Virus record (IMG/VR): IMGVR_UViG_3300019935_000001
Coordinates: 36,145-100,144 of that record
Source of the DNA: a virus
Lineage: Duplodnaviria > Heunggongvirae > Uroviricota > Caudoviricetes
Strand: one strand, 5' to 3'
Length of the DNA stretch: 64,000 nucleotides
The position numbers and the translations under genes were made by a program. This document shows positions 8,694 to 57,167 of this stretch, piece by piece. The notes under the pieces are model-generated. The model was not told the origin of the DNA. It worked only from the letters and a program-made list of their open reading frames with translations, and did not search any database. The first letter of the stretch is position 1; every line of letters starts with the position of its first letter.

Positions 8694-9269
8694 ATGACAC
8701 GACCACAAAATGCACCAGGCTGTTACGGCGTGGGCATTGCCTCCATGAAGAGTCCTGTCTGTAAAGAATGCGCAGCTCGTGAGGGTTGCGCAGAACGAGC
8801 TGTAGAGAACCTGCAGCTCGCTTCCGAGACGGTTGATGTAACCGATTACCTCGCAGTACATGGCCTGGCGCCAAAGCATAAGGGCGAGATGCCCCGCCAC
8901 TATCTAGCAAAGGTGAAAGTCCGGAAGGCGACTCAGCAGGAGCTGAGCATGTTCACAACTATGCCCGCAAAGGCTCGATCCATTGCAGAGTCATTGGTGA
9001 AGAAGAACATCTGTCTTCACACGAGCCTATCAACGAACCAGAACCCCTTTAACACAAACAAACCTCAGTACCTGAAGCCCGTATTCGACATGATACTGAA
9101 CTCCGGGGCGGTGTCCCGCCGCTCGATTATCGACGCGATCCGCTTATCTGGCAGCTCTGCTGCAACTCAGCGATCTCAGCTGTCAACTGCAATAGGGCTA
9201 CTGGAAGGCACCGGAGTCCTGATCAGAGATGGCGCTGAAAATTACAAGGTAGCAAACCGTGACATTTAA
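8694..9269 (+). CDS. hypothetical protein (Cys-rich N-terminus)
   Basis: ATG at 8694 preceded by AAGGAG; the track ORF starts at 8661 inside cobS. Contains CYG..CKECAAREGC. Confidence 0.5.
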   Translation: MTRPQNAPGCYGVGIASMKSPVCKECAAREGCAERAVENLQLASETVDVTDYLAVHGLAPKHKGEMPRHYLAKVKVRKATQQELSMFTTMPAKARSIAESLVKKNICLHTSLSTNQNPFNTNKPQYLKPVFDMILNSGAVSRRSIIDAIRLSGSSAATQRSQLSTAIGLLEGTGVLIRDGAENYKVANRDI

Positions 9270-12200
9270 CCTGACGCACTACATTGGTTGCCGCACCCAC
9301 TTCAGTCTGGGCGAAAGCATCCTGTCCCCTAAGCGGGCCGTTAATGAGCTGTCCGGCATTGCGCCGAGCATGACGATTACCGACCTGAACTCTGTAAATG
9401 CTCTGCCGAAGTCCTACAAGGAGGCGAAGAGCGACGATTTGAATCTGAATTTTGGCGCTGTCTTTAAGGTCGTTGATGACCTGGAGTGGCGGAAGCCAAA
9501 GAAGGGTGAGAAAAAGACAGTTAACCATTTCTTCTCACCTCGACTGATCGCCAAGAATGTAGATGGCATGAAGGACATCATGCACTTGCTGTCCGTATCG
9601 AATGATGCAGACCACTTCTACATGACACCACAATGCTCCATTGAGGAGCTGATCGAGGCAGCTTCACGCGGCAACGTGTACGTGACCACCGGGGACACGG
9701 ATTCGCTGTTTGCGCACCCGGAATACAGAACAAAGCTAGTGCAGCTGGTACGCGCTCTGAAAGCGTCTGATTTGCTGTTTGAAGTCGTTCCAGTCTGCAC
9801 GGCATATTATGACCGTCTTAACGAAACGACGATCAGAGTTGCAGAGAGACTGTCTGCAGCCATGATCGTCACGCGACCGATCTATTACAGCTCCAGCATG
9901 AGCGGCACCCGCAACGCCATGTACTGCGTGAAGAATCGTAGCCAGGTAACAGAGCGCTGGCGCTCCGAGCCTGCAGTGAACAACCTGCACCCCCTGGTTG
10001 CTGCAGACATGGAGCAGGAGCTGAGCAACCTGATAGATCGAATGGTGCTGCGCGACCTGGATCGTGATGCTGTGACTGAAGCCCTGCACCGCGCTGTCGA
10101 TACCACCAACGCTCTGCCTGAAAAGCTGAACTACGCCTGGGAACCATATGACATCTGTCTACCTTCCATGAGTGATGATCCGTTTGGTGGGCTGGTAGAG
10201 ATCGTAAAGCAAGGCTGGACAGACCGGATCGAAAAGGTGGTATACGGGTTCCAACCAGATCAGAGCCAGCTACCGGAGTATCGGGAGCGCCTGAAGTACG
10301 AACTATCTGTCTTGAAGCGCATGGGCTTTGAGAACTACTTCCTTCTGGTGCATCAGGTGGTGTCGCAGGCTAAATCCATGAACATCATGGTAGGCCCGGG
10401 ACGAGGATCTGTAGGTGGATCACTCGTCGCATTTTTGATGGGGATCACCGATGTTGACCCTATCCGCTTTGGCCTGATCTTTGAACGATTCATCAACCCG
10501 GATCGACTCGACCTTCCTGATGCCGACCTCGACTTTATGTCCTCCCGCCGTGAAGACATCATTAAATGGTTGGTCAAAGAGTATGGCCAGGATTATGTGT
10601 GTGGCATCAGTAACTACGGTGAGCTTGGTGCATCTTCGGCACTAAGGAGCGCAGGTAAGATCCACGGCCTGACCGAAACCGATGTTTCATGCTCCAAACA
10701 GGTGCCGAAAGAGCACGGTTCCAGCAAGTCACTGGAAGAAGCGAGAGAAGAGGTTCCGGCAATCAAGGTCTTCGCAGATAAGCACCCGGAAGTGTGGGCA
10801 GACGCCTGCAACCTGCAGGGCATCTTCAACGTTTACGGCCAGCACGCTGCAGGTGTTGTAGTGGCCGGCGAACCCATCATTGAACGTGCTGTGGTTGAAG
10901 TCCGCAAAGGCGGTCAGCTCTGCAACTGGGACAAAAGCGTGGTCGAAGAGTTCGGCCTGGTTAAGCTCGATGTGTTGGGCCTGAGTAACCTGGATGTACT
11001 GCGCCTGGCAAAGGACTACATCAAAGAGCGTCATGGCGTAGCAATCGACTACGAGGATGTTCCGCTGGATGATCCGGACGTTCTGGCTGCATTCGGTGAG
11101 GGCAAGACAAACGCCGTGTTCCAGTTCGAGTCTGGCGGTATGAAGGGCCTGCTGAAGTCACTGGCAGAGTCCGGAAGCCTGACGTTTGAAGACATCGCAG
11201 CGGCAACCGCTCTATTCCGTCCGGGCCCAATAGACGCTGGCCTGATGGATCAGTATGTCGCCATCAAAAACGGCAACATGACAGAGACGTACCCGCATCC
11301 GATTTGTGAAGGCGCGCTGCGAGAAACATACGGGGTAATGGTCTATCAGGAGCAGGTAATGCAGATCGCTCGGGATCTGTCGGGCTTCTCGATGGCTGAA
11401 GCTGACAAGCTGCGTAAAGCGATCGGTAAGAAAGACGCCGACCTGATGGCATCAATGGGCGAGAAGTTCGTGCAGGGTGCTCAGGAGTCGGGCATGGCCG
11501 AAGTATCTGCACAGGCATTGTGGGATGACATCCTCGGCTTCGCGGCTTACTCCTTCAACAAGTCTCACTCTGTCGCCTACACGATGATCTCCTACCTGAC
11601 GATGTGGCTGAAGGTAAAGTACCCGGCAGAGTTCTTTGCCGCCTCAATGTCGATCCTGAAAGAAGAGAAGCTGCCTGGCCTGGTGCGTGACTGTACCGAA
11701 GCTGGCTTGATCGTAGTGCCCCCGGACATTAACCGCTCCACTGACAGGTTCGAGATTGGCTATGACGGTGCCAGACAGTGTGATTCTCTGATTATCCCGT
11801 TCCAGCGATTGAAGGGTCTATCCGAGAAGGCGAGCGCGGCGATTGTCGAGGCCCGTGAGAAGCGGAAAGAAGAGCAGGGCGATAGTCGCTTTGTTTCAAA
11901 GAATGACTTCCTGGGCTATGTGGTGAAGCGGGTGTGCAATGTCCGGGTACAAAGTGCCCTGGATGCGGTCGGTGCTTTCGCGGAAATCGAAGGTCAGATT
12001 CCAGCTCTGCACCCGGATCGAATCAAAGATCAGAAGACCCTGCTACCGGGACTGATCGCCAGCAATGTGAAGGCGGACAGAAAGATCGACCTGTCACCTT
12101 TCGTTCGGCGGGAGCTGGTCGGGCTGATGCAGGAAGCAAAAGACTGCTGCGAAACCTTCAAGGGTGAAACCGTTGTCGGCCCAGCAATGGCTAAAGGTCG

Positions 12201-12660
12201 CGTACCGAAATTCATGGTCGTGATGGATGCACCGAACTGGGGCGAGAAAGATGCTGGCGTCATGTTGAAGGGAAAAGCCAGCAGAGACGTGCTGACTGCC
12301 CTGGACGAAGCCGGGCTCAAGCCTAGCGAGGGTTACTTTACGGCTCTGTCGAAAATGATGAAGCCGAAAGGTGAGAAGCAGATACCACAGCAAATGCTGA
12401 TCGACTTTGGCCCTATCCTGGCGCAAGAGATCGAGCTGCTGAAGCCACCGGTGATTGTGGCGCTCGGAACGGCTGCGGCCCGCTTCCTTCTGCCTGATCT
12501 GAAAGGTGGTTGGGAAGAGATCGCAGGTACAAGCCACTACGATGCCAAGCGGGACTGCACGGTGGTGATCGGGTGCAACCCGTCAATGGTGTATTTCGAT
12601 CCCGACCGGATCAACATTATCGTGGACGCATTTGAAAAAGCACGGGAGATGACAGAATGA
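9259..12660 (+). CDS. dnaE: DNA polymerase III alpha-type (DnaE) polymerase with C-terminal UDG-superfamily-like domain
   Basis: 1133 aa. PHP-like N-terminus, then a colinear DnaE core (GPGRGSVGGSLVAFLMGITDVDP, VKLDVLGLSNL, FRPGP, FNKSHSVAY). The last roughly 150 aa resemble family-4 UDG. Confidence 0.9.
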   Translation: MTFNLTHYIGCRTHFSLGESILSPKRAVNELSGIAPSMTITDLNSVNALPKSYKEAKSDDLNLNFGAVFKVVDDLEWRKPKKGEKKTVNHFFSPRLIAKNVDGMKDIMHLLSVSNDADHFYMTPQCSIEELIEAASRGNVYVTTGDTDSLFAHPEYRTKLVQLVRALKASDLLFEVVPVCTAYYDRLNETTIRVAERLSAAMIVTRPIYYSSSMSGTRNAMYCVKNRSQVTERWRSEPAVNNLHPLVAADMEQELSNLIDRMVLRDLDRDAVTEALHRAVDTTNALPEKLNYAWEPYDICLPSMSDDPFGGLVEIVKQGWTDRIEKVVYGFQPDQSQLPEYRERLKYELSVLKRMGFENYFLLVHQVVSQAKSMNIMVGPGRGSVGGSLVAFLMGITDVDPIRFGLIFERFINPDRLDLPDADLDFMSSRREDIIKWLVKEYGQDYVCGISNYGELGASSALRSAGKIHGLTETDVSCSKQVPKEHGSSKSLEEAREEVPAIKVFADKHPEVWADACNLQGIFNVYGQHAAGVVVAGEPIIERAVVEVRKGGQLCNWDKSVVEEFGLVKLDVLGLSNLDVLRLAKDYIKERHGVAIDYEDVPLDDPDVLAAFGEGKTNAVFQFESGGMKGLLKSLAESGSLTFEDIAAATALFRPGPIDAGLMDQYVAIKNGNMTETYPHPICEGALRETYGVMVYQEQVMQIARDLSGFSMAEADKLRKAIGKKDADLMASMGEKFVQGAQESGMAEVSAQALWDDILGFAAYSFNKSHSVAYTMISYLTMWLKVKYPAEFFAASMSILKEEKLPGLVRDCTEAGLIVVPPDINRSTDRFEIGYDGARQCDSLIIPFQRLKGLSEKASAAIVEAREKRKEEQGDSRFVSKNDFLGYVVKRVCNVRVQSALDAVGAFAEIEGQIPALHPDRIKDQKTLLPGLIASNVKADRKIDLSPFVRRELVGLMQEAKDCCETFKGETVVGPAMAKGRVPKFMVVMDAPNWGEKDAGVMLKGKASRDVLTALDEAGLKPSEGYFTALSKMMKPKGEKQIPQQMLIDFGPILAQEIELLKPPVIVALGTAAARFLLPDLKGGWEEIAGTSHYDAKRDCTVVIGCNPSMVYFDPDRINIIVDAFEKAREMTE

Positions 12661-15619: not shown

Positions 15620-16671
15620 GTCAATTCGATGCCCTGTTCGACGCAATTGGTGAGAACGACGAGCGCCAGTCTGTATCCATTTACCTGGATTCCGGCGTAC
15701 CGGAGCTGAACCATGCAGTATCAGGCCGATACCGCGGTGGCTTCGCTGTCGGTCGCCTGTACGAGATCTTTGGCCCTGAATCATGCGGCAAGACTTTCCT
15801 GTCTACCATGCTGATGATCCAGGCTCAGAAGATGGATGGCTTTGCAGGCTTCTCCGATCACGAGCGCAGCTTTGAAGATGGACTGGCTCAGAAGCTGGGC
15901 CTCGAAACCGGCAAGGGTGCTGCATGGGCCTATCGTCGCCCGGACACCCTGGAAGAGTCCTTTGATACGGCTATCGAAGCGATGGCGACGATCCGTGAGA
16001 AGGGGCTGATCCCGGACGAAGCACCGATTGTATGGACGTTCGACTCCATTGCCTCAATGGTTCCGCACTCCGTCCTCTACGACAAGGAAGGCAAGCGCCG
16101 AAAACTGACCTCCCTGAACATGCGTGACAACCTGGGCCTGGCAAAGTCTCTGTCAGATGCGCTGAAACAGTTGTCGGTATTCGCTAACGACTATAACGCG
16201 CTCTGTCTGCTGCTGAATCAGATTCGATTAGATCCGGGAATTATGTTCGGTGATCCGAACGTAACGCCGGGCGGCAAAGCTGCAAAGTTCTACTGTTCAG
16301 GCCGTGTAAGTCTGGGCAAAAAGCACCTGAAAGAAGACAAGAAGGAAACTAAGAAGCTGACCGGTGCCATCGTTTCTGCCCGCACGGTGAAAAACAAAAT
16401 TGTGCACGAAGGCGAAGATGCTCAATGGCGTATGCAGTTCCTGTCCGGTGGTCAGACTATCGTGGACAAGATTGGTACTCTGCTGGACTACTGCATTCGT
16501 GAGAGCTTCATCAAACGTTCTGGTGCTTACCTGGAGTGGGACGGCAAGAAGATCTATGCGAGCCAGCTGAAAACTCAACTGGAGGCTGCTGATGATGGGT
16601 ACGAACAGCTGCTGGCCCTGCTGCCAGAAGACGTTGATCCTGAAGACGGCGATCTGCTGGATGATGTTTGA
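15616..16671 (+). CDS. RecA/UvsX-family recombinase
   Basis: 351 aa. GRLYEIFGPESCGKTFLS (RecA-type Walker A). ATGA overlap with the FEN gene. Leader motif embedded in the FEN 3' end. Confidence 0.8.
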   Translation: MSQFDALFDAIGENDERQSVSIYLDSGVPELNHAVSGRYRGGFAVGRLYEIFGPESCGKTFLSTMLMIQAQKMDGFAGFSDHERSFEDGLAQKLGLETGKGAAWAYRRPDTLEESFDTAIEAMATIREKGLIPDEAPIVWTFDSIASMVPHSVLYDKEGKRRKLTSLNMRDNLGLAKSLSDALKQLSVFANDYNALCLLLNQIRLDPGIMFGDPNVTPGGKAAKFYCSGRVSLGKKHLKEDKKETKKLTGAIVSARTVKNKIVHEGEDAQWRMQFLSGGQTIVDKIGTLLDYCIRESFIKRSGAYLEWDGKKIYASQLKTQLEAADDGYEQLLALLPEDVDPEDGDLLDDV

Positions 16672-19968: not shown

Positions 19969-21045
19969 ATGACCAAACCGTTCGGGGTTGCATCCGATGT
20001 GCATCTCCATAACTGGACCGCTTTTGCTGAGTCCACAGCAGATGGAGTTAACTCCCGTCTGCGCATCATTCTTAACGAGCTGATCCGTGCCGCCCAACAG
20101 ACTCTCAAGTCTGGCGGTAAGCGCATGGTAATCACCGGCGACCTGTTTCACGTTCGCGGCTCTATCACTCCATCCGTACTGAACCCGACACTGGACACTT
20201 TTCGTCAGATCATAGACATGGGCATCGAAGAGGTCGATGTGCTGGCCGGTAATCATGACCTGGAGTCGAAAGACAGCAACGCACTGACTAACGCCTGTGA
20301 AGCGCTGAGCCAGCTGTCGGAAGTCATGGTTGTATCAGCAACAAAGATCGTTGATCGCAATCGGGCGGTGTATGTCCCGTGGTACGACAACAGTGACGAT
20401 CTGCTGGCAGAGATTAACCGTGCAATCGGCGAGCTGCCGGAGCCTGTTGGCGAGTACGACCTGTTCATTCATGCACCGGTGGACGATGTGCTGCCGAACA
20501 TGCCGGGTCACGGGATCAACCCTGATGACCTGAAGAACCTGGGCTTCCGCTATGTTTTCTCCGGCCACTATCACAACCACAAAGAAGTGCGCGATGGCGT
20601 GTTCTCTGTCGGTGCAACAACTCACCAGACGTGGGGTGATGTCGATTCAAAGGCGGGCTTCCTGCTCGTGAATGACAGAGGCGTTAGCTACTGGCCGTCC
20701 GAAGCACCTGCATTCGTAGATCTGAGCGCTGCAACCGTAACTGATGACGTCGAAGCGTGGGATCTGTGTTCTGGCAATTATGTCCGGGTGAAGCTCGATC
20801 AGGTTACTCAGTCCGAAGTGGCCGAGATCAAGAGCTGGCTGATCGACGACATCGGGGCGAAGAACTGCATTATCCAGGCAACTCCGAAGAACAAGGTTGT
20901 CAGTCGCACCAGGTCGTCGAAAGGCGGAACGCTGCGTGAAAGCGTTGGTGACTTTGTAGGCTCGAAAAATATGACAGTTGAAAAGAAAGATGTGCTGGCA
21001 GTGTGCGAAGACATTCTGACGGCGACAGCAGGGGTGACAGTATGA
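19969..21045 (+). CDS. sbcD: SbcD/Mre11-family nuclease
   Basis: 358 aa. Metallophosphoesterase motifs GDLFH, GNHD, GHYHNH. Confidence 0.8.
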   Translation: MTKPFGVASDVHLHNWTAFAESTADGVNSRLRIILNELIRAAQQTLKSGGKRMVITGDLFHVRGSITPSVLNPTLDTFRQIIDMGIEEVDVLAGNHDLESKDSNALTNACEALSQLSEVMVVSATKIVDRNRAVYVPWYDNSDDLLAEINRAIGELPEPVGEYDLFIHAPVDDVLPNMPGHGINPDDLKNLGFRYVFSGHYHNHKEVRDGVFSVGATTHQTWGDVDSKAGFLLVNDRGVSYWPSEAPAFVDLSAATVTDDVEAWDLCSGNYVRVKLDQVTQSEVAEIKSWLIDDIGAKNCIIQATPKNKVVSRTRSSKGGTLRESVGDFVGSKNMTVEKKDVLAVCEDILTATAGVTV

Positions 21046-35837: not shown

Positions 35838-36448
35838 TGCGCGAACTGATTGTAAATGTTACCGATATTGAAACTACTGGCCTGAAGCAGGAAGACGGCC
35901 ATCGCATCATTGAGGTTGCGATGGCCCTGCTGAAGATCCAGTTCAACGACGACAACACCTTTGCTGGCTATAAGCGAGTAGGCAAAACCTGGTGTCAGCG
36001 AATCAATCCGTGCCGGAACATCGATGCAGCTGCACAGGCTGTTCACGGTATCAGCTTATCGAGTCTGCGCGGCGAGCCGGTCTGGGAAGATGTAGCCGGG
36101 CGTGTTGCAAAGATCCTGGCGGCGAGTGATGTCGCGGTGGCTCACAATGTTGAGTTTGATATGCCGTTCATTGCTCTGGAGCTGGTACGCATTGGCCAAG
36201 AGATCCCGGACTTCGAAACCTTCTGTACTTTGGAAGGCGGGCGATCTGCTACGGGCCTGGGCACAGTACCTAGCCTGCAGAAGCTATGTTGGGCCATGGG
36301 TGTGCCGTACAACCCGGATGAAGCCCACGCTGCTGATTACGATGTGGACTGCACAGTTGATGCGCTGGTCAAGGGTTTGAATCTGGGATACTTCAGCTTC
36401 GCTGATGTCCTGAACGAAAAGTATGGTGAAGCCAGTGCTGAAGTTTGA
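35837..36448 (+). CDS. DnaQ-like DEDDh 3'-5' exonuclease
   Basis: 203 aa. Exo I VTDIETTGL, Exo II VAHNVEFDMPF, Exo III HAADYDVDC. Confidence 0.8.
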   Translation: MRELIVNVTDIETTGLKQEDGHRIIEVAMALLKIQFNDDNTFAGYKRVGKTWCQRINPCRNIDAAAQAVHGISLSSLRGEPVWEDVAGRVAKILAASDVAVAHNVEFDMPFIALELVRIGQEIPDFETFCTLEGGRSATGLGTVPSLQKLCWAMGVPYNPDEAHAADYDVDCTVDALVKGLNLGYFSFADVLNEKYGEASAEV

Positions 36449-51670: not shown

Positions 51671-51850
51671 TTACACTTTGCCCCGTGGGAGCAGCCCCTG
51701 GAGCCCAAGCGGGACTCGGCTTCGCCTCGCCGCTGGCATATTGGGAGCCTGAAGGTCTTCGCTGGAATCGACCACTCGATCTTTGAACAGTGAGGCCGCG
51801 ATCTGCTGAATCTGAGCCGTGCTCAGGCTGTCAATCGCCAGCTTTGGCAT
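51671..51850 (-). CDS. hypothetical protein
   Basis: 59 aa from the ATG at 51850 (MPKLAIDSLS...). 20-nt overlap with the upstream gene. Confidence 0.35.
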   Translation of the reverse strand: MPKLAIDSLSTAQIQQIAASLFKDRVVDSSEDLQAPNMPAARRSRVPLGLQGLLPRGKV

Positions 51851-52076
51851 TGTTCTTTCTTCCCTGGACAATCAGGCCACCGAGCCCCAGTACCGCTGTT
51901 GCTCCCCACAGCAACTTGATGTGAAACCACGCATCCTTGACCTCGCCGAGTGTGAAGGGCTGGGGTGTGCCGTATAGCTCTGCACTGATGAACTCTTTGA
52001 CTGTGGGGTATTCCGCCATCATGAAGCCCGCGACTGTGGCCGTGAGGGATGCACCGACGTACAACAAAACGTGCAT
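51831..52076 (-). CDS. small membrane protein
   Basis: 81 aa, two hydrophobic helices. GGAGAC RBS and a palindrome copy 23 nt upstream. Confidence 0.55.
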   Translation of the reverse strand: MHVLLYVGASLTATVAGFMMAEYPTVKEFISAELYGTPQPFTLGEVKDAWFHIKLLWGATAVLGLGGLIVQGRKNNAKAGD

Positions 52077-52098
52077 GTTTTACCGTCTCCTGTTGAAT

Positions 52099-52118
52099 AT
52101 AAGTCAGAACTGACTTAT
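52099..52118. promoter_or_regulatory. dispersed palindrome ATAAGT-N8-ACTTAT
   Basis: ATAAGTCAGAACTGACTTAT. Confidence 0.5.
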
Positions 52119-52235
52119 AGTAGGCTTGTTCCGTTCGGAACGTTCAAAACTGTACTACTCTGTCTGTAGCCACCTGAATAAGGTGGCCCATTTTTTCTGC
52201 TTTTGTGCCGTCTCAGTTGCCTGAGAAAGGCGTGA

Positions 52236-52829
52236 TCAGGGCGACTCGCCTTTCTCACCAATCAAAGGGTGCACATGTCGATAGTATGATGACCTGCTGA
52301 TCTCAAATTCACTGCACACATTGGCAATGGACTCGTCCGGGTTAGCAGAAACATACGCCGCAATTGCGCGACGTCGCTCCTTTGATAGAACTTTGGGGCG
52401 CCCACCCACGCGTCCCCTTGCTCTCGCAGATTCCAGACCAGCTTTGGTTCTTTCCTTCAATCGACTCACTTCAAGCTCTGCGAGCGCAGCGAACATATGG
52501 AAGATGAACTGGCCTGTTGGTGTGGTGGTATCGAACTTTTCCGTGGTCGATACAAAGTGAAGCTCTCTTCGTTTAAGCTCCATGGTTGTAGACACAAGAT
52601 CAATGAGCGAACGCCCCAACCGATCCAGTTTCCAAACGACGATGGCGTCCCCGGGTCTTGCAAACTCCAGCATTTCATCAAAGACCTGTCGTGACCAGGT
52701 AGAGCTGGTGCCCGTCACCTTCTCTACGAATACTTTCTCAACGCCTTCTCGCTCGAAGGCATCCAGCTGCAAAAGCAACTTCTGGTCGTCAGAAGATACC
52801 CTTCCGTACCCGAGCTTCACACGCCGCAC
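52236..52829 (-). CDS. small serine recombinase (Hin/resolvase family)
   Basis: 197 aa. GYGRVSSDDQ (catalytic Ser), VVWKLDRLGRS, GRVGGRPK, C-terminal HTH. Confidence 0.9.
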   Translation of the reverse strand: MRRVKLGYGRVSSDDQKLLLQLDAFEREGVEKVFVEKVTGTSSTWSRQVFDEMLEFARPGDAIVVWKLDRLGRSLIDLVSTTMELKRRELHFVSTTEKFDTTTPTGQFIFHMFAALAELEVSRLKERTKAGLESARARGRVGGRPKVLSKERRRAIAAYVSANPDESIANVCSEFEISRSSYYRHVHPLIGEKGESP

Positions 52830-53362
52830 CTTTTGAAGATCATCATTTGGGCCAGTTCTTCATTGGTGTATCGGCTCAGTAGCAGGTCCGTTGCGGCCGT
52901 TGTTGTTTGGGCAGTGCCTGTCTCTATCATTTTGAGGCTCAAATCGTGAAATAAAATGGTTGTCTCGGGATGCCAGGTAAAGGATCGCAGAGCTTTGGTG
53001 ATGCCGCTCCTCATCTCGATCAATGCAAAAGACATTACCAGGCGTTCACCCGGTTCTGGCTCTTCGATGCTTCTATCGCTGTCTGGTATCCGCTTCGGGT
53101 CGAATGGGCAACAGAACCATACCGAGCGTCCCTTTCTGTCCCGAAACTGAAACATGATGATCATAGCGCCGCCCCGAATCAACAGTCCGATGTCTACCGG
53201 GCTTTCGCGAAATGTACGAATCTCTGCTGGTGTCAGATCAGGAAGTCCTGCAACAAACAGGTTGTTTCCGTGATCCAGGAGGTGCAGCTGGGAGAACTCT
53301 GGCAATGGCGGGATGATGCCGGGCCACTTCTTACCCAGCTCTATCTTGGTGTAGTCGTCCAT
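52817..53362 (-). CDS. hypothetical protein co-transcribed with the recombinase
   Basis: 181 aa. Leader ACAGACAGAGACAGAGAAAACACC before the ATG. 13-nt overlap with the recombinase start. Confidence 0.55.
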   Translation of the reverse strand: MDDYTKIELGKKWPGIIPPLPEFSQLHLLDHGNNLFVAGLPDLTPAEIRTFRESPVDIGLLIRGGAMIIMFQFRDRKGRSVWFCCPFDPKRIPDSDRSIEEPEPGERLVMSFALIEMRSGITKALRSFTWHPETTILFHDLSLKMIETGTAQTTTAATDLLLSRYTNEELAQMMIFKRCGV

Positions 53363-53423
53363 GGTGTTTTCTCTGTCTCTGTCTGTACTACAGCCTGATT
53401 AGTCTCAGGCTTGACTGTGCACT

Positions 53424-53556
53424 GTCTCAAAAACGGTAACAGCACCACTCAATTGAAACATAGTTTTTGAGACGGGAAAAGAAACAGGTTTCAGCTACCT
53501 ATCCATGTATTTCGACTGCCTACTTAATTTGTTTCAAAAACGATCGTTTTTGAGAC
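53424..53556. promoter_or_regulatory. hix/res-like site cluster in a divergent promoter region
   Basis: 26-bp GTTTCAAAAACG-AT-CGTTTTTGAGAC (53531-53556). Half-sites GTCTCAAAAACG (53424-53435) and GTTTTTGAGAC (53463-53473). Confidence 0.5.
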
Positions 53557-53592
53557 ACGCTTGGCGGCAAATTCATACAGGGAGCGGAAGGG

Positions 53593-55095
53593 ATGTTGTA
53601 CCGGATTATTGTCGCCAAGGGTGCTAACTATGGCCGGGTGCTGGGAGCCCACGTTTCAGATTCCGCTGCAGGTCGTGCCCTGGGCAAAAACAAGCAGGAG
53701 TTTGGAACAGGCTCGGTACTACTAATCGAAACAGACGAGCGACTGGTGCAGGGTGTGTGTTACCCGGATGTTGCCGATCAGGGTATTGCCGATCATCACC
53801 ATAAGTCAGGTATGCGCCTGATGGAACTGGTCATTAAAAACCGGGCCACCGGTGAAGTGCCGGATTGGGTGATTGCCAGCATCATAGATGAAGGCTGGAC
53901 GATGGATTCGCTGAGCCAAGAGTTTGGGCCGCTGGTTCACCAGAAAATGGAGCAGGAGCGCCGCGAGCACCAGAAGCGGGCAGAGCGCTCTGCAATGATT
54001 CACGCAGGTCGCCTCTGGATGAAGAAAGAGATCGATGACCACGTTATCGAGCTGCCAGCCATTACAGGAACCCAAGCTCGCCGCCAATTCTTCACCGTTC
54101 AGATGACTCTGCAGCAGGTTGACCGGCTTTTGACTGCAGATCACAACGATCTGGCCCCTGAAGATCGCAGCCAGCGCAAACTGAACCCGGCACGGGGCAA
54201 AAAGCTGGGCGGGTACATTGTTGGGAACCACGACAGCTACGTTCTGCCGGCCATCACCGTCTGTATCGATCCGGATATGACCTTTGACCCGATTGAAGGG
54301 TTCGGCGGGGCAGTTGGCACCCTGAAAATACCGGTAACGTCTCTGGTCTATATCATTGACGGCCAGCACCGGCGTGAAGGTATCCGGTGGGCCTTGTCCG
54401 CTCAGTCGCTCCGCTGGCAGATGCAGAAGGAGACGATTGCGGTCACCATTTACTACGATGAAGGGCCTGAACGGCGTCAGCAGATGTTCTGTGACATCAA
54501 CTATCCAGCTGTCCGGGTGTCATCCTCTTTGAACATGCTCTACGACCGCCGAAACTCACTGAACCACTGGATTCTCGATATTTTGGCTAAAAATCAGTCA
54601 ATTTGGGGTCGAATTGAGCTGGATAGCGCGAGCGTAGGTGCCCAAAGTTCCAAATTGTGGGCCGTAGTCGCCATGAAGAAGGCTCTCCTCACGGTTTTGG
54701 GGTTGTCAGAAGTGCAATTTTTCACCAAAACCGATGAAAATCGGGCCGAAATGGAAAAGGTGGTCGATAGGTTCTTCGACACTCTGGCAGAATATCTGCC
54801 GCGCTGGGGCATGGTGATAGACCCGGATTGCTCCGCTCCGGACATCAGGAGCGACTATATTGTTGGCCACGCTGTTTTCCTGCAGGCGCTAGCTATCGTT
54901 GCCCGCAAAGCCCAGGAAGAAGAGGGCGGCTGGCAGAAGCTGTCCGGGCTGGCCAAGCTCGACGTAGCGCGAGATTCAGAAGTGTGGGAAGGTAAATGTG
55001 TCGTCAATGGAAGGATGAACCGGTCGGCAGCCGGGGCCAACGCCACTGCGGCAGAAATTTGTAGCCAGATTGGCATAGAAATGGACTGGAGTTGA
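53593..55095 (+). CDS. DGQHR-domain (DndB-like, ParB/Srx fold) protein with about 165-aa unknown N-terminal domain
   Basis: 500 aa. YIIDGQHRREGIRWAL and QQMFCDINYPAV (the DndB-family QxFxDxN motif). Confidence 0.75.
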   Translation: MLYRIIVAKGANYGRVLGAHVSDSAAGRALGKNKQEFGTGSVLLIETDERLVQGVCYPDVADQGIADHHHKSGMRLMELVIKNRATGEVPDWVIASIIDEGWTMDSLSQEFGPLVHQKMEQERREHQKRAERSAMIHAGRLWMKKEIDDHVIELPAITGTQARRQFFTVQMTLQQVDRLLTADHNDLAPEDRSQRKLNPARGKKLGGYIVGNHDSYVLPAITVCIDPDMTFDPIEGFGGAVGTLKIPVTSLVYIIDGQHRREGIRWALSAQSLRWQMQKETIAVTIYYDEGPERRQQMFCDINYPAVRVSSSLNMLYDRRNSLNHWILDILAKNQSIWGRIELDSASVGAQSSKLWAVVAMKKALLTVLGLSEVQFFTKTDENRAEMEKVVDRFFDTLAEYLPRWGMVIDPDCSAPDIRSDYIVGHAVFLQALAIVARKAQEEEGGWQKLSGLAKLDVARDSEVWEGKCVVNGRMNRSAAGANATAAEICSQIGIEMDWS

Positions 55096-55098
55096 GAT

Positions 55099-55344
55099 AT
55101 GGACACAATAGGCCGAATGGTGTCGCAGTGGGCGACTGAAGATAAGGAACAGATCAATGCGCTGGTTGAGCAGCATGGGGATCTGGTAGTGGAAGTCACC
55201 GGTGCCGACGATGGTTGTGTTTATGCCACCGCGGGCACCTATCGTCTGTCTCTGAACCCGGAGGCTGTCAACGAAGAGGTAGACAACAAGTCTATTAGCG
55301 ACATTCGCCACCTGATCCTGAAAGTGTACCCAACGGTCGATTAG
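55099..55344 (+). CDS. small acidic hypothetical protein
   Basis: 81 aa. Starts 4 nt after the DGQHR gene stop. The ATPase ATG follows 11 nt after its stop. Confidence 0.5.
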   Translation: MDTIGRMVSQWATEDKEQINALVEQHGDLVVEVTGADDGCVYATAGTYRLSLNPEAVNEEVDNKSISDIRHLILKVYPTVD

Positions 55345-55354
55345 ATTGGTAACA

Positions 55355-56185
55355 ATGAAAATCAGAAGACTGAAGATCAACAACTTCCGGGCATTCGGCC
55401 AGTTTGAATGCGAGTTCGAGCCTGGGATCACCGTTCTGACAGGGCTGAACAGCTCAGGAAAAACAGCGGTTCTGAAAGCCATCATCGTGGCAGCTGGCCA
55501 GGACAGAAAGATTCAGACTTCTGATATTCGCCAGACTCGTTCCTCTGCAGGTTCGGGTCTGATCTCTACAGAGCACCACCTTCCTGTGAACATTGAGGTG
55601 TGGGAAGACAGCGACACAGACCCGATCCTGGTCGCATCCCGTCAAAAGCTGAAAGGCAGAACCTCTCAAGCCGGATACATTGGCCCAATCTGCTACTACG
55701 ACAGTGGCAGGCGGAATATCGACAATCCCTCACCTGAATCCCTGGCCCTGGCCAGACAGGCACTGGACATCGTTCTGGAGCCTGTTGGCTGGAGCAACGT
55801 GCGGTACATTCCCGGTATCGATCAGATCTGTGCAGACCATGACGCTCAGGGTACAGCCCCAGTGGCCGCAATAGGTGGAATCGGAAGTGTCATTGATATG
55901 GTGGCCGGGATCGCCCAGCAGGGCAGCCAGCTGGCTTTGATCGACGGGATAGATTTACACCTGCACCCCAAATGGCAGCAGATGATCCTGCCTGGTCTGG
56001 CAGCGGCCTTTCCCGATCTGCAGCTTATCGTGACGACTCACAGCCCATTAGTGCTGTCTACTGTGAGCCGGAGTCAGATCCGGGTGCTTCCAGATTTCGG
56101 AAATGGAGAGTGCGCAACCGTCCCAGCATGTGAGACGCTGGGCAAAGCCTGCGACGACCTGCTCACTGAGGCGATGGGAAATTAA
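55355..56185 (+). CDS. compact ABC/RecF-like ATPase (AAA_15/21-like)
   Basis: 276 aa from the ATG at 55355. MKIRRLKINNFRAFG, Walker A GLNSSGKT, Walker B/H-loop LALIDGIDLHLHP, TTHSPLVL. Confidence 0.7.
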   Translation: MKIRRLKINNFRAFGQFECEFEPGITVLTGLNSSGKTAVLKAIIVAAGQDRKIQTSDIRQTRSSAGSGLISTEHHLPVNIEVWEDSDTDPILVASRQKLKGRTSQAGYIGPICYYDSGRRNIDNPSPESLALARQALDIVLEPVGWSNVRYIPGIDQICADHDAQGTAPVAAIGGIGSVIDMVAGIAQQGSQLALIDGIDLHLHPKWQQMILPGLAAAFPDLQLIVTTHSPLVLSTVSRSQIRVLPDFGNGECATVPACETLGKACDDLLTEAMGN

Positions 56186-56520: not shown

Positions 56521-56892
56521 CTACTCAGCTAGATATTTTTCAAGTATCTCTGGTATACCCAGGCTTATAGCCAGCTTCAGAAGGGACTCTTCCAGAACCT
56601 CCGGCTCTGCCTTTACTGCGAACTCAACCTTCCGAGCCTTCCAGTCAAAGGTCTGTGGCATGTTGGAAACAACAACGCAGGCCTGGTCCAGATTGTTGAC
56701 CTTCACCTCTTCAGTGCCACCGTAAATCGAAGTGCTCACCGGCAGCACAGTGGCGCGTCCGGATTTGTTTTGTTCCTTTGTTGAGATAACAAGTGCGGGC
56801 CTGCGCTTGCCAATCTCTTTTCCTGCCTTCGGGTCAAACGTCACGATTACTAAATCGCCCTGACCCGGGATGTATCGACTTACCGATCCCAT
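56521..56892 (-). CDS. mazF: MazF/PemK-family toxin
   Basis: 123 aa. IPGQGDLVIVTFDPKAGKEIGKRRPALVIS. Confidence 0.8.
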   Translation of the reverse strand: MGSVSRYIPGQGDLVIVTFDPKAGKEIGKRRPALVISTKEQNKSGRATVLPVSTSIYGGTEEVKVNNLDQACVVVSNMPQTFDWKARKVEFAVKAEPEVLEESLLKLAISLGIPEILEKYLAE

Positions 56893-57167
56893 TCTGTCTC
56901 CACAGTTTCAAATAGATCGTCAGCCCGAAGGTTAGCCGGAGTCATCCCCGCAATCAGTTCATCCTGAGTGAAGGGAAGTTTATACCTCGGCTTCGCGCGC
57001 GGCGTGACAGCCTTAATGATGATCTCAGTACCTTGCGCCGCGATTTCTACTTCAGCGCCTTTTGTGATACCGGCTCTTTTCATCAGCGCAGCGGGCAGCC
57101 TAATAGCAGAGCTGTTGCCCCACTGACTGACCTGGCCAATGACCCTTCGGGTTTCTCGTGTCGCCAT
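56880..57167 (-). CDS. mazE: MazE/AbrB-fold antitoxin
   Basis: 95 aa. SQWGNSSAIRLPAALMKRAG. 13-nt overlap with mazF. Confidence 0.75.
   Translation of the reverse strand: MATRETRRVIGQVSQWGNSSAIRLPAALMKRAGITKGAEVEIAAQGTEIIIKAVTPRAKPRYKLPFTQDELIAGMTPANLRADDLFETVETEWDR

Follow-up and report, generated by a model that had tools for sequence, protein, structure and literature searches.

Organization of the locus

This work concerns a small serine recombinase gene and the non-coding region upstream of it, located in a 64-kb window (the whole stretch of DNA analysed, positions 36,145 to 100,144 of the IMG/VR virus record IMGVR_UViG_3300019935_000001). Upstream of the recombinase operon lies a 28-bp palindrome, here called site I, which is followed towards the operon by a spacer and by an array of four accessory half-sites. 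The complete putative res site (site I, spacer and array) spans about 135 bp. As we argue below, the palindrome is most likely the crossover core of this res site, which would serve to split dimers of the phage-plasmid that carries it into monomers. The features of the locus are the following:

52236-52829, minus strand: small serine recombinase, presumed resolvase, 194-197 aa (PF00239, E = 1.2e-38)
52817-53362, minus strand: orf181, first gene of the operon, 181 aa; its stop codon overlaps the recombinase start codon (GTGA)
53423-53435, plus strand: accessory half-site A, TGTCTCAAAAACG, closest to the operon and in the orientation opposite to that of D, C and B
53448-53460, minus strand: accessory half-site B, TGTTTCAATTGAG on the recombinase-sense strand, a repeat in the window
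53462-53474, minus strand: accessory half-site C, CGTCTCAAAAACT on the recombinase-sense strand
53475-53486, minus strand: accessory half-site D, TGTTTCTTTTCC on the recombinase-sense strand, with position and outer hexamer conserved in relatives
53487-53529, no strand: spacer between site I and the accessory array, 43 bp, conserved in length and not in sequence
53530-53557, no strand: site I, presumed crossover site, a 28-bp dyad with halves TGTTTCAAAAACGA and TCGTTTTTGAGACA and a central AT at 53543-53544

The arms of the site I dyad are complementary at 13 of 14 positions, with one mismatch, around the core AAACG-AT-CGTTT. By our own arithmetic, about 0.01 such 28-bp dyads are expected by chance per 64 kb. 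The letters at 53531-53556 are GTTTCAAAAACG-AT-CGTTTTTGAGAC, that is, a 12+2+12 arrangement. An earlier annotation of this DNA made without database searches (the sequence-only reading) had pointed to this architecture and to the Hin/Gin flavour of its half-sites, and both were confirmed by comparison with gix of phage Mu, taken from the genome record NC_000929 (TTATCCAAAACC-TC-GGTTTACAGGAA). Mu gix and site I share the 12+2+12 layout and an A-tract followed by C/G beside the centre, and the in-register match to the window half-site covers 8 of 12 positions. Literature string searches with the half-site and hix sequences returned unrelated primers only. The central dinucleotide of site I is a symmetric AT; it is TC/GA in Mu gix, and AG, AC, GT or AT in the dyads of relatives. 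Res-type systems exchange strands at a dyad of about 28-30 bp with a central dinucleotide, and 53530-53557 is predicted to be such a crossover dyad. The possibility that the dyad is a hairpin or terminator was ruled out, as no T-run lies 3′ of it and as its right arm is degenerate at the locus of the nearest diverged homolog (L003), where position and spacing are kept.

The sequence-only reading had also considered an inversion switch. In a switch of the Hin/Gin type, the dyad would be one end of an invertible segment flipped with a Fis-type enhancer. The register and the A-tract/C-G inner sequence shared with gix speak for this explanation, whereas the symmetric central AT, compared with TC/GA in gix, speaks against it.

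A search with the 12-mer GTCTCAAAAACG showed that the dyad is not isolated. At up to one mismatch, all four matches of the window fall inside 134 bp (53424-53556), while about 0.3 would be expected by chance in the whole 64 kb; at up to two mismatches, 6 matches were found against 4.8 expected. Two strong half-sites lie 56-134 bp from the dyad, one at 53424-53435 on the plus strand (GTCTCAAAAACG, no mismatch) and the other at 53462-53473 on the minus strand (GTCTCAAAAACT, one mismatch). These are the isolated half-sites that the sequence-only reading had placed at 53424 and 53463, and correspond to A and C; the first position is exact, and the second half-site is real but lies one base away, at 53462. 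Two weaker half-sites, both on the minus strand (53448-53460 and 53475-53486), emerge from the comparison with relatives. Half-site C follows D by 12 bp in the window and by 12-13 bp in most relatives, B follows C by 14 bp (14-15 bp in most relatives) and the outer end of A, which in relatives lies +119 to +123 from the dyad centre, is at +121.

The four accessory half-sites occupy 64 bp (53423-53486) on the operon side, between site I and the recombinase gene, which leaves site I distal. This is the general rule of res systems, in which the accessory sites lie in cis beside the resolvase gene and site I is distal (PMC7157771, PMC12217951), and on the evidence of sequence the layout follows it. 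The Tn3/gamma-delta-like geometry anticipated by the sequence-only reading is thus borne out, as is the location of the cluster between the recombinase operon (minus strand) and a DGQHR gene (plus strand, start at 53593). The internal order of the array is of its own kind: instead of three inverted-repeat subsites within about 114-120 bp, it has three direct half-sites and one inverted half-site within a site of ~135 bp. Half-sites D, C and B are head-to-tail as in Sin-type sites, but the accessory half-sites here number four, over 64 bp, and no IHF motif is conserved in the spacer. An IHF site as a conserved spacer feature was rejected, since by eye there was one candidate with two mismatches in the window and none in the GC-rich relatives. 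In the alignment with L003 the spacer shows almost no indels and little identity.

Between half-site A and the start codon of orf181, we observed a perfect 7-bp inverted repeat specific to this element (53392-53411, AGCCTGA-N6-TCAGGCT). Its candidate roles are a hairpin in the 5′ untranslated region or another operator.

Conservation of the layout

We compared the region upstream of the recombinase gene with the equivalent region of its homologs, counting positions on the recombinase-sense strand from the dyad centre. The nearest diverged homolog (57% identical, L003) carries a co-linear AACCTGTCTCTTTTCCTGTCTCAAAATCTATGCTTCAAT...TATTTGAGACAG directly upstream of its start codon and a dyad-like site 94 bp further upstream, and the alignment to the window is almost without indels. 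The same plan was found upstream of homologs that are 35-49% identical (L005, L006/L007, L008, the plasmids pXCP1 and pVEIS01, and L023-L028). The positions in relatives are:

+56 to +58: start of direct half-site D
+68 to +71: start of direct half-site C
+82 to +86: start of direct half-site B
+119 to +123: outer end of inverted half-site A
+122 to +146: recombinase start codon

Of 8 loci, 7 have the beginning of the array at +56 to +58. The exception is L005, where D, C and B start at +48, +57 and +70; in pVEIS01, half-site A is not recognisable. The outer hexamer of the half-sites varies from locus to locus (TGTCTC, TGTCGC, TCTCTC, TGTATC) and the inner core of site I, AAACG-NN-CGTTT, is retained. 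Such co-variation around a fixed core would be expected if recognition of the outer hexamer fell to the helix-turn-helix domains and the centre were constrained by catalysis. An unbiased detector, which looks for a hexamer repeated four times with these spacings and counts mismatches out of 18, gave 3 for the window, 0 for L008, 1 for L006 and 3-4 for L003, L026 and L028; a score of 3 or lower occurred in 1 of 540 shuffles. The control region of phage Mu, gixR-gin, scored 6, which is null-like, and offers only about 67 bp between the gixR centre and the start of gin. The conserved array beside the dyad, with none detected at Mu gixR-gin, is a further point against an inversion switch.

Closer relatives were sought in several collections. 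PLSDB holds no near-identical DNA for 51800-55200, and among IMG/VR viral contigs both a protein search and a DNA-pattern search came back empty. The near-identical copies found are all the same element in other metagenomes; they are 100% identical over the site and are thus uninformative on variation. Scans of metagenomes and of GTDB returned only relatives that are at most 49% identical, without finding L003 again, and these are usable for the architecture of the site and not for fine footprinting.

Six of the loci (L006, L007, L023, L024, L025 and L027) carry a nearly identical recombinase-plus-res module after a gene ending in ...ADWMPWNFTDALARLTSAADPPR. This L006/L023-type module was found in metagenome-assembled genomes with assignments to Zavarzinia, Spirochaetes, Acidobacteria and Myxococcales, which leaves two explanations, a mobile element of very wide distribution or contamination or binning carry-over.

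The replicon and the number of sites

The contig has 102,745 bp. Proteins encoded in the window include DnaE, NrdAB, ThyA, CobT, an SbcC-like protein and a helicase. The flanking loci carry genes for ParA, ParB, a Rep-like protein, ligase, primase and DnaB on one side and terminase, portal, capsid, tape-measure, GpJ-like and tail-fibre genes on the other. The DNA of dnaE is 65-70% identical to that of nickie/SSU5-type phages and plasmids of ~105-120 kb. This match and the coexistence of plasmid and phage genes identify the replicon as a divergent phage-plasmid. At least three independent assemblies contain this element, with the site 100% identical and the arrangement unchanged.

We searched for further copies of the site in the window together with loci L016, L037 and L039, which amount to ~101.3 of 102.7 kb (98.6% of the replicon). 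A 12+2+12 dyad scan of the window gave no other site at up to seven mismatches, and the single match with eight mismatches is attributable to chance (2.6 expected). Outside the cluster, the searched part of the replicon contains no second dyad, no half-site with up to one mismatch and no second AAACGNNCGTTT core. The second site for which the sequence-only reading had advised searching the full replicon is therefore absent from 98.6% of it, the tail-fibre genes included; the latter are all on one strand and show no alternative cassettes. A complete relative gave the same picture, since the 41-kb plasmid pXCP1 has exactly one dyad. One site per replicon is what a res system calls for, whereas an inversion switch would have an inverted partner; the identical arrangement seen in three assemblies also speaks against such a switch.

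The recombinase

The catalytic residues R10, S12, D69, R70 and R73 are all intact in the recombinase and invariant in alignments with Gin and TnpR. At the C-terminus, a GRVGGRP arm and an ISRSSYYRHV helix align with the HTH_7 domains of homologs, although the protein's own Pfam matches to helix-turn-helix families are below threshold. It thus has both parts of a small serine recombinase, namely an N-terminal catalytic domain and a C-terminal helix-turn-helix after a GR-rich arm.

Its matches in PDB are Gin (1.5e-35), Sin (3e-18) and gamma-delta (3.8e-18). By direct alignment it is 38% identical to Gin and 37% identical to the Tn3-family TnpR of pXCP1, and with identities so nearly equal the sequence of the protein does not decide between invertase and resolvase. 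The sequence-only reading had called the protein Hin-like and had noted the motif VVWKLDRLGRS, shared with Hin. The motif is indeed present and is also found in Gin, but it occurs in the aligned TnpR as well, so that it is a general motif of small serine recombinases and no signature of Hin; the label Hin-like is too narrow. As far as an inversion switch is concerned, the protein evidence falls on both sides: Gin is the top PDB match and the nearest phage homologs (42-44% identity) are annotated as tail-fibre invertases, whereas identity to TnpR is on a par with that to Gin.

Genomic context of the relatives

Several relatives of the module reside among plasmid maintenance genes. In pXCP1, the homolog lies between genes for RepA and RelE-ParE (toxin-antitoxin) and genes for ParA/ParG, and in pVEIS01 it lies directly upstream of trfA. 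A 46.6%-identical homolog (WP_011222055) is encoded by several plasmids of Aeromonas, Pseudomonas, Klebsiella and Vitreoscilla (IncP-6/IncU-like plasmids and that of Vitreoscilla). In these plasmids, terminal repeats of Tn402/class-1 integrons abut the same point, ~70 bp upstream of the recombinase start; the repeat is IRi in one plasmid and of the IRt type in others, and the junctions differ by 2 bp. Their positions are:

L015, 3900-3992: Tn402-type terminal-repeat junction
L021, 2900-2992: Tn402-type terminal-repeat junction
L022, 2900-2992: Tn402-type terminal-repeat junction

The offset of 2 bp indicates repeated insertions. Tn5053/Tn402 elements are described, in the title of Minakhina 1999 as listed in PMC7157771, as hunters of res sites occupied by their cognate resolvase, and SGI1 presents the same situation (PMC12217951). 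By analogy, Tn402-type ends inside the equivalent site are the signature of such res hunters.

A second observation concerns pVEIS01 (L033), which has a second, inverted and partial copy of the site (15652-15677 compared with 20104-20129). This copy comprises the dyad and ~35 bp of spacer, without array, and the stretch of identity with the full site starts inside the left half of the dyad, within 6 bp of its centre. An inverted second site could be counted in favour of an inversion switch; to us, the partial copy looks like the scar of a past exchange at the dyad centre. The plasmid carries two trfA genes and two brnTA pairs, and it looks like a cointegrate.

A further relative is L003, a distantly related, syntenic phage-plasmid. 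The end of its helicase gene and its genes for Grx (glutaredoxin-like), orf93 and orf177 match window positions 61283-60069 at 34-53% amino acid identity. In L003, site and recombinase follow this block immediately, with neither DndB nor orf181. The window has about 6.5 kb extra between the syntenic block and site I (two small open reading frames, Endonuclease_1, a KfrA-like protein, MazEF, a PtuA-like ATPase, orf81 and DndB), plus orf181 between the array and the recombinase. Since syntenic L003 has the site and the recombinase in the absence of DndB and orf181, the recombinase is the gene to which the site belongs. DndB is not a neighbour of the site in any relative, and the geometry of divergent promoters with DndB is therefore peculiar to this element.

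Neighbouring genes and other features of the element

The genes on the far side of site I form a cassette that runs away from it:

53593-56185, plus strand: neighbouring cargo outside the recombination module, comprising a DndB/DGQHR protein (500 aa), orf81 and a compact PtuA-like ABC ATPase (279 aa)

The DndB/DGQHR protein has an N-terminal extension of ~150 aa, and no dndACDE genes lie nearby. MazEF follows this cassette, so that the cargo occupies 53593-56185 (plus strand) and 56521-57167 (minus strand). The DndB, PtuA-like and MazEF genes look like a small defence/addiction island inserted beside res site I. In the Tn3 family, cargo beside res site I is a known pattern, for which exchange at site I has been proposed (PMC7157771). 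The DndB-like start codon comes 36 bp after the end of site I. A sigma-70 scan of the intergenic region detected no promoter, and the candidates found by eye were all weak.

On the recombinase side, orf181 is missing at the equivalent position in every relative examined. It has no match in Pfam, NCBIfam or PADLOC and no sequence match in PDB, and a word-index search yielded no relative. An exhaustive HMMER search recovered 149 remote relatives of about 175-190 aa, which make up an uncharacterised family. The single-sequence AlphaFold2 model was not usable (predicted local distance difference test, pLDDT, 36.5), and an alignment-based model was used instead (pLDDT 94.5), which is beta-rich with C-terminal helices and gave no informative fold match. 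When 41 family members and longer fusion relatives were scanned with Pfam, the only finding was an ankyrin fusion, in one protein, and the genes around two remote relatives gave no clue. One remote relative adjoins an AcrVA2-like gene (L035/L036). The GTGA overlap suggests that orf181 and the recombinase may be translationally coupled, and this putative coupling is the sole hint of a link between them.

Elsewhere in the replicon, the DnaE-type polymerase (1133 aa; 9259-12660, plus strand) carries at its C-terminus a domain of the uracil-DNA-glycosylase superfamily (PF03167, residues 984-1110). A transposase of the IS256/Mutator family lies inside the phage-plasmid at 17105-18313 (minus strand). 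The SRR7051469 assembly splits into two contigs (75.9 and 25.3 kb) at this transposase, which suggests that the insertion sequence is multi-copy in that sample. The large terminase is called as two open reading frames in the JGI 3300019758 copy (220 and 201 aa; L038 3237-4509) and by a single one of 424 aa in L037 (4656-5930); the split may be a frameshift or an assembly error.

Discussion

Taken together, we consider it probable that the locus is a res/resolvase module for the resolution of multimers, part of the phage-plasmid backbone and probably autoregulated, with a gix-like core and a non-canonical accessory array. Among the roles proposed by the sequence-only reading, multimer resolution for the plasmid state is the one best supported by the comparative evidence, that is, by the conservation of the layout, the plasmid-maintenance contexts of the homologs, the single dyad of pXCP1, the res-hunter insertions and L003. 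Judged by its organization, the module appears to be a maintenance module of known kind, a serine resolvase with its res, in an unusual host replicon and with a conserved accessory layout unlike the textbook types.

By comparison with known resolvases, the reaction may proceed as follows. Recombinase dimers would bind site I (53530-53557) and the four-half-site array (53423-53486). In a plasmid dimer, the two ~135-bp sites, in direct repeat, would synapse through the accessory-bound subunits. The tetramer bound at site I would then cut the central AT with a 2-nt stagger and exchange strands, as can be extrapolated from Tn3/gamma-delta and Sin (PMC2428073), and the product would be two monomers, to be partitioned by ParAB. 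Because site I is symmetric at its central AT, it must be the asymmetric accessory array that confers polarity and resolution bias, as in Tn3 res. The presence of four accessory half-sites points to two more dimers, possibly one on D and C in head-to-tail orientation, as at Sin site II (PMC2428073), and another on B and A, which are inverted and 38 bp apart.

In the relatives, the array abuts the recombinase start codon, which places the start of transcription within or upstream of res, and autoregulation by occupancy is thus expected. Site I could also dampen the DndB-like gene, whose start codon is so close. Control of the DndB cassette by the site or the recombinase is possible; the arrangement is not conserved and no promoter was detected.

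Several points weigh against this interpretation. We found no demonstrated binding, cleavage or resolution for the recombinase or for any member of its clade, and its best solved relative by sequence is an invertase, Gin. An array with three direct and one inverted half-sites fits neither Tn3, with three inverted-repeat subsites, nor Sin, with two dimers and HU. In L003 the right half of the dyad is degenerate, the arrays of L005 and L013 are by-eye assignments that are not significant in the strict hexamer test, and L029 has no array. About 1.3 kb inside the GpJ-like tail gene fell outside the copy-number search. Finally, as no sigma-70-type promoter was detected in the intergenic region, the expectation of autoregulation derives entirely from geometry.

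The module combines features of several known systems. With Tn3/gamma-delta it shares a small serine recombinase, a 28-bp dyad crossover site with central AT, accessory sites in cis between site I and the recombinase gene, a distal site I that faces a divergent gene, one asymmetric composite site per replicon and, following the Tn3 precedent, the expected autoregulation (PMC7157771, PMC12217951, PMC2428073). It differs in the length of the site (~135 bp compared with 114 bp) and of the spacer between site I and the array (43 bp compared with 22 bp), in having three direct and one inverted accessory half-sites instead of two inverted-repeat subsites, in its half-site (TGTCTCAAAAAC, with a gix-like inner core), in a protein match to gamma-delta of only 3.8e-18 and in the absence of a transposase partner. 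Sin/beta res sites resemble it in their head-to-tail accessory half-sites, which a serine recombinase dimer tolerates (PMC2428073), in a long spacer between site I and the accessory sites that could hold a DNA-bending protein, and in a role in plasmid dimer resolution, here presumed. Sin res is shorter, however, with 86 bp and two dimers against four accessory half-sites over 64 bp here; across the relatives no IHF-like spacer motif is conserved, and the protein match to Sin is only E = 3e-18. The Hin/Gin/Cin/Pin invertases have in common with it the 12+2+12 core with A-tract and C/G (8/12 with Mu gix) and, in Gin, the closest solved structure (38%). Here, in contrast, there is no inverted partner in 98.6% of the replicon, the dinucleotide is symmetric, an accessory array is present and the recombinase is not beside tail-fibre genes.

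A resolvase with invertase-like affinities has a precedent, at least by description. The ISXc5 resolvase is characterized as 'closely related to DNA invertases' (Liu et al. 1998, as cited in PMC12217951 and PMC7157771). As in our proposal, it is an invertase-like resolvase that works with res and accessory subsites, a likeness of concept drawn from these descriptions. On the other hand, ISXc5 is a Tn3-family transposon member, and its res is drawn Tn3-like in the legend of Fig. 7 of PMC7157771; the window recombinase has neither a C-terminal extension nor a transposase partner.

Plasmid multimer-resolution systems, Cre/lox of P1 among them, also have one site per replicon, set among maintenance genes (ParAB, Rep, toxin-antitoxin), and the same conversion of dimers to monomers before partition is expected here. 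Cre differs in being a tyrosine recombinase, and its 34-bp site is simple and has no accessory sites. In RP4 parCBA, the res site occupies a divergent promoter region and the resolvase gene is the last of its operon.

A bolder interpretation of the same data is that the module represents an uncharacterised, phylum-spanning class of serine-resolvase synaptosome, distinct from Tn3 and Sin, with orf181 as a recombination or directionality cofactor and with resolvase occupancy tying the expression of the defence genes to plasmid entry or copy state; the promoter region of the DndB-like/ATPase cassette may, in that case, overlap site I. We regard this extension as doubtful.

It is unlikely that the cluster is a purely regulatory operator array, through which the recombinase, DndB or orf181 would repress divergent promoters without any recombination. 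DndB proteins have been reported to regulate transcription of the dnd operon. The cluster does fill the divergent intergenic region, and Tn3 resolvase bound at res represses both promoters (PMC7157771). Nevertheless, the layout tracks the recombinase and is kept complete in relatives without DndB and orf181, the catalytic residues of the recombinase are all intact, an AAACG-NN-CGTTT core with fixed spacing over ~135 bp exceeds the needs of an operator, the res-hunter insertions and the scar-like partial copy indicate a recombination site, and no promoter was detected. DndB as the protein that binds the array was rejected because all relatives have the array without DndB.

We also judged it very unlikely that the locus is a transposon remnant, namely the cointegrate-resolution module of a decayed Tn3-family element with no maintenance role. 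Many small resolvases with an upstream res are of the Tn3 family, where toxin-antitoxin-type cargo typically lies beside site I (PMC7157771), as MazEF and the defence-like cassette do here, and the L006/L023-type relatives resemble a mobile module in metagenome-assembled genomes of unrelated phyla. Against this, no Tn3-type transposase or terminal repeat lies near the module, the only transposase of the window being of the IS256/Mutator type and 35 kb away, and the element is identical in at least three samples. Moreover, the module occupies the same backbone position in L003, which argues for vertical inheritance as a backbone function.

An inversion switch is highly improbable given the evidence set out above, since the features that characterize invertases are missing: no inverted partner was found in the 98.6% of the replicon searched, the crossover dyad does not stand alone but is accompanied by accessory sites, and its central dinucleotide is symmetric. 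In addition, three assemblies are alike. The evidence thus supports neither the Hin-type switch nor the regulator of the DndB cassette put forward by the sequence-only reading.

Phage-plasmids need dimer resolution for stable inheritance, and P1 achieves it with Cre/lox. To our knowledge, no dimer-resolution system has been assigned in the SSU5/pHCM2-like supercommunity. The res/resolvase module described here provides a testable candidate for this function, with a defined site of ~135 bp, in one divergent phage-plasmid lineage. In its array, the core is gix-like, the head-to-tail half-sites resemble those of Sin and the length and placement recall Tn3, and this combination is kept at 35-57% protein identity and at very different GC contents. 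The site is likely a hot spot for the accretion of cargo and for the insertion of Tn402-type res hunters. The fixed geometry of the array makes the family a natural comparative data set on how accessory sites impose resolution selectivity.

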